DNA of 64,000 bases from an uncultured Gammaproteobacteria bacterium (GTDB lineage: Bacteria; Patescibacteriota; Microgenomatia; JALYQM01): the NCBI GenBank assembly GCA_964525495.1, contig CAZGHS010000006.1, forward strand, positions 10,891 to 74,890. Reading direction: 5' to 3'. Made by a program: the position numbers. Within the stretch, counting starts at the first letter, position 1; each line of letters opens with the position of its first letter. Below, in pieces: positions 18,001 to 21,000 of this stretch.

Positions 18001-21000
18001 ATGTCGTAAACAAATAGACTAAGAGAATCGCCAATGATAGGATAACTGCTATTTTTTTCATATTTATTTTGATCTTTGTATTGCGAACTCTTTTCTTCTT
18101 CTCCTTATTTGAATGCCCTTTGCGATTAATGGAAGTATTGGAATTAACATAGCTAACAATGCTGTGCGCTCTGGAACGACGATACCTACATCAAGTCTGG
18201 TATCAGCATCAACTGTTCCTGATGCATTGTGTGCCCCGTTGTATCGTAAGTCGAATGTTCCACCTGTGCGCGTGAACTTCATGAATAGACGCTTATGTGT
18301 AAGCGATTCTTCACCGTATTGTGGCAGGTTTGAGAATACTATACTCTTCTCTCCGTCTGTAGAGTCTACTCCACCATCAAATGTGCCATTGGTACTCTCA
18401 AAGGCTGTAGTTTCTCCGTCAGCTTCCGTAGCACCAACTTGGACGTTTAAGGTATCTCCAGATGCTAAGTTATTAAGTATAAAATATGCTGTCCAACTGG
18501 TTGAGGTCATACTTCGGTTCATGGTGTTGTATGACTGACCGTAGATATTTATAGCTGGCGCTCCCTCTCTTGTATCATTCCAGGCTAATTGTAGTGCGAT
18601 ATCGTCAGCAGCATTTGTGTATGTACGTTTGCTAATCACCGGCTTAGTTTGAACTGAAGTATTAAGAGCACCTCGCGTGTTGTCTACTCTGACATCGCGG
18701 ACGTTGTAGGAACCATTCTCCCCTAGCCCATTTGGCCAAACTGGGTTGCCGTCACTATTCACTTTTTGCATATAAATGTTTGACTCACGAGTTGTATCCG
18801 AAGGTGACGTCAGTCGATCGTCAGACCAGGTTACATAGCTGACAGCGTTAGCGCTGTCAGATGCGATTCGTGGATCAGTCTGATTATATGATCGTGATGA
18901 GTCATCTGATGAGATTAATTTTTCACTTAACTCTGGAGTAAAGAGTTCGGTAGTTGTGTATCCTAGCGAAGCATCAGAGTCACCCCCAATAATGAGCATC
19001 TTGCCTGTTTTAAGTAGTACTGAGTTTGCATATGTACGTGAACCAGTTGCTAAATTCGGTCCGGCAGTCCATGTACCAGTCGTAGGGTCGTAGAGCTCCG
19101 AAGTTGAGAGTACACCTACAACATCATCCTGTCCTCCAGTTAACATAACTTTTCCACTTGGAAGAAGCGTGATATTGGCATAATCACGTCCGCCATAAGT
19201 AAGACTTCCGGTTGCTGTCCAGGTCTGACTACTTGGATCATAAATCTCCGAAGTTGAAAGCACACTTCCTGGACCGGCGCTTCCCCCAGTTATGAGAACT
19301 TTATTATTATTAAGTTTAATTGCGTGTGGTCGCTGTCTTAATCCCGTTGTAAGTGACCCGGTCGTTTGCGTCCAGGTTTGAGTTGTCGGATTGTATAGCT
19401 CTGAGGTTGAAAGTCGTACAGAACCATCGTATCCTCCCATGATTAGTACTTGCTCGTTGGCTAATGTCACTAACCCAGGACCTAACCGCGAACCCAATCG
19501 TAAACTACCTGTGGTTTGTGTCCAGGTCTGGGTTGTCGGATTGTATAGCTCTGAGGTTGAAAGAACTGTAGCTACGCCAGAACGCCCGCTCGCAGTTAAA
19601 ACTGTGCCAGTGCTTAAAATTGCAGTCAGCGCTTCACTTCGCCCACCTAAGCGCAGACTGCCGGTTGTTTGTGTCCAGGTTTGGGTTGCTGGATTGTATA
19701 GTTCTGAGGTTGAATGATAAGCTGCTGATCCATCAATACCGCCATAGAAAAGAACCTGACCATTTTCAAGCGTTACAGTGCCAGCATTTGCTCTTTCACC
19801 GGTTCGGAGATTGTCCGTCAATGACCATGTGCCCGCCTGAGGGTCGTAGATCTCTGCGGACGAATAGTAGATTCCTCCGTCAGAATCCAATCCCGCAGTT
19901 ATAAGAACTTTGCCTGATGGTAATGTTGCTGCACTGCCAAAGGTTCTCAGATTATTCAGTCCGCCACCTGATGCGAATGAGTTGGGAGTGCCTGTTGGTA
20001 ACATTTTTGTTACTGATCCAGATGATGGGTTATTAATTTTTTGTTCTGCTATTTTCCATGAGTTTCCACCATTTCCTGGAGATAGACCCTCTGCTCTCCA
20101 TGCCTGCCAGACTATCTGGAAATGTCCACTACTGTCTTTTACTAAATCAGGCTTAAGCGAGTGCGTGCTGTCATTATTTGATACTTTTTGATCTATTGAG
20201 AAGATCTCTGCTGATGAGTATGTTGTAGAATCATCCCAACCGCCAAAGACTGCTGTTTGTCCATTGTTTAAGGTAACCATTGTGTGATTTTTTCTTGCTG
20301 TCCCTGTTCCAGCAAATACAGTCCAAGTTCCTGTGGTCGGATCATACAACTCTGCAGTTGTGAGTTCGTCAGTTCCATTGGTTGTGCCACCATGAACTAC
20401 TATCTGACCAGATGGAAGTAATACTGCAGTGTGATCTGACCTTAACCCTCCAATTAAACTACCCGTGGTTGTCCAACTATTTACATCTGGAGTGTATATT
20501 TCAGCGGTTGAGAGTCTATTTGTTCCATCGCTTCCACCAACTGCTAGTACTCTTCCATCATTGAGCGGTGTTAGCGTAAAATCTTGTCTCTTTGTTGCCA
20601 AAACTGAAGCAGCTGTCCATGCACTCGTAGCAGGATCATAAAACTCAGCCGATGAAACTGGTCCAGTTCCATTAGTACCTCCTGCTATCAAAACCTGTCC
20701 ACCTTTCATCAACGTTGCCTCATGGTTTCTTCTTAGCCCTGTTCTGAAATTGCCGCTTGCAGCAAATGTTGAAGTATTAGTTGTATACAATTCTGACGAA
20801 GAGAGCATAGTTGTAGTATTTCGTCCACCTGCAATGATTACTCTGCCGTCACGTAAAGCAGTTGCAGTGTGCTCGGCTCGAGATGTTGTCATGCCTCCTG
20901 TGGTGCTTGCAAATGATCCTGACTCACCGCTGGCTGTAAAAAGCTGTGCAGTAGTAGTTGATGTACTGCTTGAAGTACCACCTCCGGTTATCAAAGTCTG

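Follow-up and report, generated by a model that had tools for sequence, protein, structure and literature searches.

The question raised by this locus is whether a very large predicted glycan synthase ends in a sorting signal for an exosortase-like enzyme encoded on the same stretch of DNA. The stretch, called the window below, comprises 64,000 nucleotides of contig CAZGHS010000006.1 (positions 10,891 to 74,890). A first-pass annotation had described the end of its giant protein as a Pro/Glu motif, a hydrophobic helix and an arginine-rich cluster, the layout of PEP-CTERM or archaeosortase-type signals, and had paired it with the exosortase-like gene at 220..846. Our analysis indicated that the tail is probably the cognate sorting signal of an unnamed short subfamily of exosortase/archaeosortase-type proteins, of which the product of 220..846 is the copy in the window. 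Both parts belong to conserved families, and their genes are tightly linked in relatives.

Translation of the giant gene, 18064..27633 on the reverse strand, gave 3189 amino acids (aa), and the C-terminal end, directly before the stop codon, was DTRLDVGIVVPERTALLAMLIPILPLIAKGIQIRRRRKEFAIQRSK. The motif, the helix and the RRRRK cluster were all found where the annotation had placed them, and its interval 18064..18190 covers every part. The motif begins 37 residues from the C-terminus and is followed by a hydrophobic stretch of 20 residues and by RRRRK, in agreement with the positional definition of a tripartite signal given by Haft. The hydropathy scan and charge count showed one lysine or arginine (K/R) before the helix and six in the 15 residues after it. 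When the window tail and three canonical tails of its family were compared with NCBIfam (release 20.0) and Pfam, no match was obtained at E ≤ 10. Membership of the tail in PEP-CTERM (TIGR02595 / PF07589) was rejected at this threshold, and the motif reads V-P-E-R, not P-E-P. The earlier description as a PEP-CTERM or archaeosortase-type signal thus held for the tripartite architecture but not for the PEP-CTERM models.

The conservation of the tail was analyzed in homologs collected with the N-terminal 820 aa of the giant protein (its helix-turn-helix (HTH) and GT2 domains) as query, and hence independently of the tail. The search listed 120 homologs, mostly of 1000-1400 aa and mainly from Patescibacteria. 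The tail pattern, [VI]-P-E with Pro at +11 and +14 and a Lys/Arg cluster, terminated 84 of them, and the other 36 were mostly annotated as partial. Once C-terminal orthologs were included, the same tail was present in 101 of 139 listed homologs. The outside domains of the tail-bearing homologs are unrelated to each other, and most carriers share the GT2 module. The tail was also found on non-GT2 proteins with an N-terminal signal or anchor (L041 309-1541, L071 7927-9180 and P0256). The tail is therefore more than a plain anchor private to one protein, as the annotation had supposed, since it occurs on most of the homologous GT2 synthases and on a few unrelated secreted proteins.

Recovery of the giant orthologs needed an exhaustive HMMER search with the last 200 aa; a word-indexed search with the last 287 aa gave a single match, to an internal repeat, and none to the tail. 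These orthologs, among them P0242 (3134 aa), P0245 (2957 aa) and P0249 (3422 aa), end in ...RL[DE]VG.[IV]VPER[ST].L...IP.LP... followed by basic residues. The orthologs of the window clade retain VVPER or IVPER and keep VPER...IP.LP, and their remaining tail residues drift. An alignment of 147 unique tails, anchored on PE, showed V (55%) or I (30%) at position -1, N, K, R or I at +2, a Leu-rich stretch from +4 to +9, Pro at +11 (65%) and +14 (80%), and K/R from +21 to +24. The P and E are near-invariant, with rare VDE or LPD variants, and V or I precedes them in 85% of tails. The window tail follows the family register exactly, with V at -1, PE, Pro at +11 and +14, and RRRR from +23.

A tail profile was derived from the N-terminal homologs alone (84 tails), with the window protein and its orthologs left out. 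It matched aa 3151-3181 of the giant protein at E 8.6e-6, the sole significant match among the 57 open reading frames (ORFs) of at least 100 aa in the window, whereas the runner-up had an E-value of 0.5. These data bear on a chance resemblance. Any C-terminal anchor followed by arginines looks tripartite, the motif is short and VPE might be accidental, and other window proteins, of the YfhO family, likewise end in a helix and K/R. The gap between the two E-values, the identical register in the 147 tails and the gene linkage described below make such an accident highly improbable. A second tail subtype was also seen, in which VPE-I-P, the helix and the basic cluster are followed by a cytoplasmic extension of about 30 aa with a conserved terminal LDELPV (P0122, P0126, P0137, P0153, P0183, P0187, P0215, P0221 and P0225).

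The product of 220..846 was described in the annotation as exosortase-like, with a candidate Cys in NCIGWQS and an N..R motif. It is hydrophobic and polytopic, with five hydrophobic segments, and contains SWNCIGWQS and NVFRIS. It passed the family model TIGR04178 with 39.6 bits (cutoff 23), as did all 40 homologs in an alignment covering 42-75% identity to it. Invariant in the 40 homologs were W115, N116, C117, G119, W120, Q121, S122, N158, R161, H181 and Y183. A catalytic triad of Cys, Arg and His has been proposed for the exosortase family (Haft 2023, bioRxiv 10.1101/2023.06.07.544157), and Cys117, Arg161 and His181 are all among these invariant residues. The exosortase-like assignment was thereby upheld.

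The narrower proposal of an XrtG-type enzyme was not borne out, because the protein scored 23.1 bits against a cutoff of 102.75, and no other named subfamily fitted either (bits/cutoff: XrtX 28/170, ArtC 20.3/100, XrtM 16.5/125, XrtH 12.6/86, ArtD 11.2/125). For five further homologs subjected to the full scan, no named subfamily gave more than 35 bits, with cutoffs of 86-225, and the best subfamily E-value across all 40 homologs was 4e-9. The source annotations say just 'exosortase/archaeosortase family protein' and 'glycosyltransferase'. A confident AlphaFold2 (AF2) model of the window protein shows bundled helices and a single beta hairpin loop (pLDDT 83, pTM 0.77). A PDB sequence search and a Foldseek search of the AF2 model against the PDB gave no meaningful match (best Foldseek E 0.39); we know of no solved structure in the exosortase family.

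Gene linkage was investigated by scanning the exosortase alignment against one genome per GTDB species, which gave 242 loci; the 80 best were retrieved together with 10 kb on either side. The linkage test set consisted of 83 loci chosen by the exosortase alone, in which all ORFs of at least 100 aa were scored with the tail profile. Of the 53 tail-positive ORFs, 51 preceded the exosortase gene on its own strand at a distance of no more than 3 kb, and for 34 the distance was within 300 bp. The enrichment of tail ORFs in the upstream same-strand position had an odds ratio of 237 (Fisher p 6e-46). By profile, 49 of the 83 loci carried an upstream tail, and about eight more upstream tails below the profile threshold were recognized by eye (e.g., IIVPEASLLLGLP...RRKK and a VDE variant). 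The stop and start of the cargo and exosortase genes overlap by 4-8 nt at L003, L004, L087 and L089. In all large cases tested the upstream cargo was a processive GT2. In these related loci, the tail and the enzyme, whose joint occurrence the annotation had suggested checking, were for the most part encoded side by side.

By the criteria of Haft, a dedicated one-to-one system is one in which the enzyme and its target are regularly encoded consecutively or nearby, instead of one with many targets per genome, and this is how the tail and the exosortase are encoded in the relatives. According to the record titles, the loci belong to Patescibacteria (Woese-, Curtiss-, Gottesman-, Levy-, Davies-, Chisholm- and Nealsonbacteria, and Saccharibacteria), to Chloroflexota/Anaerolineae, to Bathyarchaeota and to Dormibacterota, although some record labels look wrong. 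Many metagenome-assembled genome records with the system are titled 'uncultured Gammaproteobacteria bacterium' but have Patescibacteria-like genes (L007, L008, L011, L024, L031 and others). At L087 a single exosortase gene is surrounded by three paralogous GT2 genes with the tail, and the cultured Dictyobacter formicarum (L089; GCA_016587435.1, contig BNJJ01000008.1) has two cargo/exosortase pairs within 14 kb. A literature search combining exosortase with Patescibacteria or 'candidate phyla radiation' found no relevant paper. In Bathyarchaeial loci, proteins of about 460 aa combine an exosortase-like N-terminal half with a C-terminal domain bearing a VPE-type tail (L040 5093-6469, L063 3913-5316, L066 8578-9981 and L070 8578-9981); their genes sit between the tailed GT2 gene and a normal exosortase gene of 220 aa.

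Such tight operon linkage would be expected of the subunits of a complex as well, and the tail could instead be a permanent structural anchor that packs on the synthase bundle, as BcsB does, or on a non-catalytic exosortase-like subunit, with PE and Pro-x-x-Pro serving helix packing. In cellulose synthase, the C-terminal helix of BcsB packs against BcsA. A processive GT2 with QRQRW, a large outside domain and a single C-terminal helix resembles a fused BcsA-BcsB, conservation of the tail goes along with that of the GT2 family, and the cargo would stay membrane-bound after any cleavage. We nevertheless consider this explanation unlikely. Cys, Arg and His are invariant in the small protein throughout three phyla, which favours a catalytic role. 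Non-GT2 proteins with signal peptides, encoded next to the exosortase gene, bear the tail too, and all three elements of a tripartite signal are present in it, down to the basic residues at the very C-terminus. A fused synthase of the BcsA-BcsB type was examined as a candidate in its own right and rejected, since Pfam finds GT2 with QRQRW followed by LamG and Kelch instead of a BcsB-like domain in the giant protein, and since the tail is not confined to GT2 proteins.

The giant protein itself was characterized with Pfam, NCBIfam and hydropathy scans. The N-terminal HTH is of the transposase type. The GT2 module matches Glyco_tranf_2_3 and Glyco_trans_2_3, has weak PgaC/CelA-like matches, and carries QRQRW at aa 590. 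The transmembrane (TM) segments are 211-229, 242-260, 630-648, 661-679, 690-708 and 799-817, plus the tail helix, and the region between the last two holds one LamG domain and dozens of propeller-type Kelch repeats. TM 799-817 has five K/R before it and none after. Because of this K/R distribution around TM 799-817 and the tail helix, the positive-inside rule predicts that aa 818-3151 lie outside the cell, tethered at both ends. Contrary to the expectation that most carriers of a sorting signal have an N-terminal signal peptide, the main carriers of this tail are polytopic GT2 synthases with cytoplasmic N-termini.

A survey of the modules in front of the tailed GT2 (including L046, L014, L012 and L058) showed differences by lineage. 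Patescibacteria have a transposase-type HTH (27280..27627, reverse strand, in the window), P0172/P0177 have one of the MerR type, Chloroflexota carry a response-regulator receiver, and Bathyarchaeia and Dormibacterota lack such a module. This variation suggests lineage-specific regulation of one synthase. In an Anaerolineae cargo (L014 3704-6916), three matches to the RNA polymerase alpha-CTD (PF03118) fall at aa ~763-824, in the region expected outside the cell.

In the window, the exosortase and cargo genes are 17.2 kb apart on opposite strands. The pairing in the window rests on homology to the linked systems and on conserved synteny within the same cluster, not on adjacency. Both the 3189-aa product and the exosortase are on record on one NCBI contig of 78,731 bp. 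In the sister genome, the cargo ortholog P0245 (127174-136047, forward strand) and the exosortase P0010 (167583-168176, reverse strand) are 31.5 kb apart on one contig of 1.57 Mb (CAYOFQ010000001.1), in the same relative orientation as in the window, and the same intervening YfhO/TMEM260 genes adjoin the exosortase (L001). The ortholog P0242 in L086 has the same flanks, including the TMEM260-like/TPR neighbour downstream. L088/L005 has a comparable layout, in which the cargo is followed by TPR genes, YfhO genes and, 10.8 kb downstream, the exosortase. TPR genes also follow the cargo in L087.

The same distance and the opposite strands would agree with a pairing that has lapsed in this genome, so that the product of 220..846 serves other substrates or none and the tail is an inherited stop-transfer anchor. 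In the closest relatives of the window (L006, L007 and L008), none of the ORFs within 10 kb of the exosortase gene bears the tail, and only a single tail is present in the window. However, V-P-E, Pro at +11 and +14 and the basic cluster are kept in the window protein and in orthologs of 50-75% identity in which neighbouring tail residues vary, and 220..846 retains all the invariant residues. The arrangement on one contig in one orientation is kept in the sister genome, and the spacing by YfhO and TPR genes recurs in L088/L005. We therefore regard a lapsed pairing as improbable, and as distinctly less likely than a structural anchor.

Returning to the sorting signal, a mechanism can be proposed by analogy with ArtA/PGF-CTERM, XrtA/PEP-CTERM and sortase/LPXTG, on which the topology, the cleavage and the acceptor given here are modelled. 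The giant protein would insert into the membrane so that its HTH and GT2 domains are cytoplasmic, and the LamG/Kelch region of about 2330 aa would extend outside the cell. The chain would re-enter the membrane through the tail helix, which would place VPE at the outer face of the membrane and RRRRK on the cytoplasmic side. The exosortase homolog may then recognize VPE and the Pro-x-x-Pro helix within the membrane, and its putative Cys117/Arg161/His181 centre would cut at or near VPE. The new C-terminus would be released or transferred to an acceptor, which could be a lipid, the wall or the synthase's own glycan. More tentatively, the synthase might be an exosortase substrate in which the C-terminus of the outside domain is transferred to lipid or to its own glycan, producing a covalent protein-glycan layer in a system that crosses domains (Patescibacteria, Chloroflexota and Bathyarchaeia); we regard this extension as possible but doubtful.

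Several observations weigh against the interpretation of the tail as a cognate sorting signal. Cleavage is extended by analogy to every member of the system. An upstream tail was absent from 26 of the 83 loci, some of which are short contigs and some of which belong to the window's own clade. The near-invariant part of the motif is small, comprising only P and E with the V or I before them. The Pfam model PF09721 (Exosortase_EpsH) gave 18.4 bits, below the gathering threshold of 25.7, with only the C-terminal half of the model aligned, as the short protein does not have the N-terminal part of EpsH-type enzymes. In the window and in L006-L008, which are closely related to it, the two genes are on opposite strands and separated by 17-31 kb, and the pairing specific to the window is correspondingly inferred. 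Finally, the main cargo, being a polytopic synthase, does not have an N-terminal signal peptide, and its synthase helices would be expected to keep it membrane-bound after cleavage, which is atypical of sorted proteins.

Coordinates of the tail, the giant gene, the exosortase-like gene and neighbouring features in the window (strand: + forward, - reverse,. not assigned)
Feature	Position	Strand	Basis or remark
Giant cargo gene, 3189 aa: HTH aa 3-118, two TM, processive GT2 aa ~330-701, four TM, ~2330-aa outside region, tail	18064..27633	-	Pfam, NCBIfam, TM scan
Predicted extracytoplasmic region, aa 818-3151, between TM 799-817 and tail helix	18181..25182	-	Positive-inside rule; LamG/Kelch content
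C-terminal tripartite tail, aa 3153-3189: VPE R TALLAMLIPILPLIAKGIQI RRRRK EFAIQRSK	18067..18177	-	Translation; tail profile
Motif V-V-P-E, aa 3152-3155	18169..18180	-	Proposed recognition/cleavage site at outer membrane face
Hydrophobic helix of 20 residues, TALLAMLIPILPLIAKGIQI, aa 3157-3176; Pro at +11/+14 from motif Pro	18106..18165	-	Hydropathy scan
Basic cluster RRRRK, aa 3177-3181, predicted cytoplasmic	18091..18105	-	K/R counts
Stop codon of giant gene	18064..18066	-	8 residues between RRRRK and stop
Short exosortase/archaeosortase-family protein, 208 aa, proposed processing enzyme; Cys117 568..570, Arg161 700..702, His181 760..762	220..846	+	TIGR04178
NTP_transferase	825..1544	-	Exosortase neighbour
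Small GT2	1510..2214	+	Exosortase neighbour
Envelope-glycosylation block: YfhO-like 2910..5273, 5889..8174, 12621..15080; TMEM260-like 8171..10156	2910..15080	.	Pfam
TMEM260-like GT-C / TPR gene	15902..18061	-	Pfam PF11028, 71.7 bits

The TMEM260-like/TPR gene and the giant gene are probably co-transcribed, because the former begins 2 nt past the stop codon of the latter. Between the enzyme and the cargo, the interval 2910..18061 holds GT-C-type genes (three YfhO-like and two TMEM260-like, one of them with TPR) together with HAD, aldo-keto reductase and ion-channel genes. A sugar nucleotidyltransferase gene and a GT2 gene do stand beside the exosortase gene in the window, as the annotation had reported, but this neighbourhood is not conserved, and the sister genome has VanY there. 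Just upstream of the giant gene, and divergent from it, lies a gene whose product is an HTH protein of the MerR family with a membrane helix at its C-terminus (28184..29074, forward strand; L086 8660-9517; L090 8624-9535). Two nucleoside-diphosphate kinase genes are found in tandem at 30191..30802 and 30828..31469 (reverse strand), as in L086 and L090. In L090, from the sister genome, the ortholog is followed by a second giant HTH-GT2-Kelch paralog without the tail (19238-26143) and then by a Kelch ORF (26296-28874); a frameshift or a misassembly may have divided a single gene into these two.

At 52551..54914 (reverse strand) the window encodes a DUF11-repeat protein of 787 aa that ends in LPSTG, a helix and basic residues, a tail of the sortase type, and that scored 14.0 bits with TIGR01167, slightly below the cutoff of 15.9. 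With this protein and the VPE tail, the window carries cargo for two distinct C-terminal sorting systems. A homolog of the Lit family (lipoprotein intramolecular transacylase) is encoded at 49430..50029 (reverse strand); envelope-modification genes of the Lit family are typical of single-membrane bacteria. An Rfam scan of the window found one tRNA only and no rRNA.

The name of the exosortases reflects their association with exopolysaccharide loci, and a chemical connection between protein sorting and glycan synthesis has long been suspected. A sorting signal on the glycan synthase itself, together with an exosortase gene that is usually coupled to it in translation, would be the tightest physical link between the two processes so far. 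If the transfer onto the synthase's own glycan or lipid is true, it would be a previously undescribed route to a covalent protein-glycan surface layer, and the link between exosortases and exopolysaccharides would become directly testable. The system is widespread, with 242 species-level loci in the genome collection. It occurs in lineages whose envelopes are little known (ultrasmall Patescibacteria, Anaerolineae and Bathyarchaeia), and its presence in the cultured D. formicarum makes it experimentally accessible. The very large Kelch/LamG surface proteins that carry the tail are plausible structures for contact with hosts or surfaces. For annotation, two models absent from the current NCBIfam and Pfam can be defined, namely the exosortase subfamily and the [VI]PE-type C-terminal domain.

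The system was compared with those already described. By profile, ArtC and XrtX come nearest, both far below their cutoffs. Exosortase X (NF046081) was the second-best subfamily match of the window protein, and nearly the whole of the 168-position model was covered; however, a score of 28 bits against a cutoff of 170 means that the protein is not a member. Archaeosortase C, the enzyme for PEF-CTERM (TIGR03762), was the commonest named-subfamily match among the homologs (31 of 40, best E 5e-9). The PEF-CTERM signal starts with P-E followed by hydrophobic residues, and some family tails here read VPEF. The scores here are nevertheless 20-35 bits against a cutoff of 100, the proteins have about 200 aa whereas the ArtC model has 274 positions, and the taxa and cargo differ. 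JDVT-CTERM/MrtJ resembles the present system in that the enzyme and target genes are consecutive, but its enzyme is Rce1-like and unrelated, and its motif contains Cys.

With XrtA (EpsH)/PEP-CTERM the system shares a tripartite tail, an association with polysaccharide loci and an enzyme of the Cys/Arg/His family. In contrast, there is no P-E-P here, the cargo is mostly one polytopic synthase without a signal peptide instead of many secreted proteins, and the hosts do not have an outer membrane. Removal of the C-terminal helix by the enzyme, with attachment of a lipid, has been studied by experiment in one relative only, ArtA/PGF-CTERM of Haloferax volcanii (Haft 2023, bioRxiv 10.1101/2023.06.07.544157). 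It serves as the mechanistic template here, although it differs in motif and subfamily, and its cargo is the S-layer glycoprotein.

XrtG is a short exosortase homolog (~190 aa) encoded beside GT2 glycosyltransferases in Firmicutes, and its cargo is a separate Firmicu-CTERM protein (PMC12854382). By context, XrtG/Firmicu-CTERM (TIGR03110) is the closest system, as both have a short exosortase beside GT2 genes in single-membrane bacteria. The locus L003 has a PTPS_related membrane protein nearby, and a PTPS_related protein is another neighbour of XrtG. The difference is that no NCBIfam CTERM model matches the tail described here and that the GT2 synthase itself bears it. The proposal of the first-pass annotation that a VPE-type signal on a glycan synthase represents a new cargo class is in keeping with the tailed GT2 synthases linked upstream of the exosortase in relatives. 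The system is thus a variant of the known exosortase and C-terminal sorting systems, with a new enzyme subfamily, a new flavour of signal and a new class of cargo, the glycan synthase itself.

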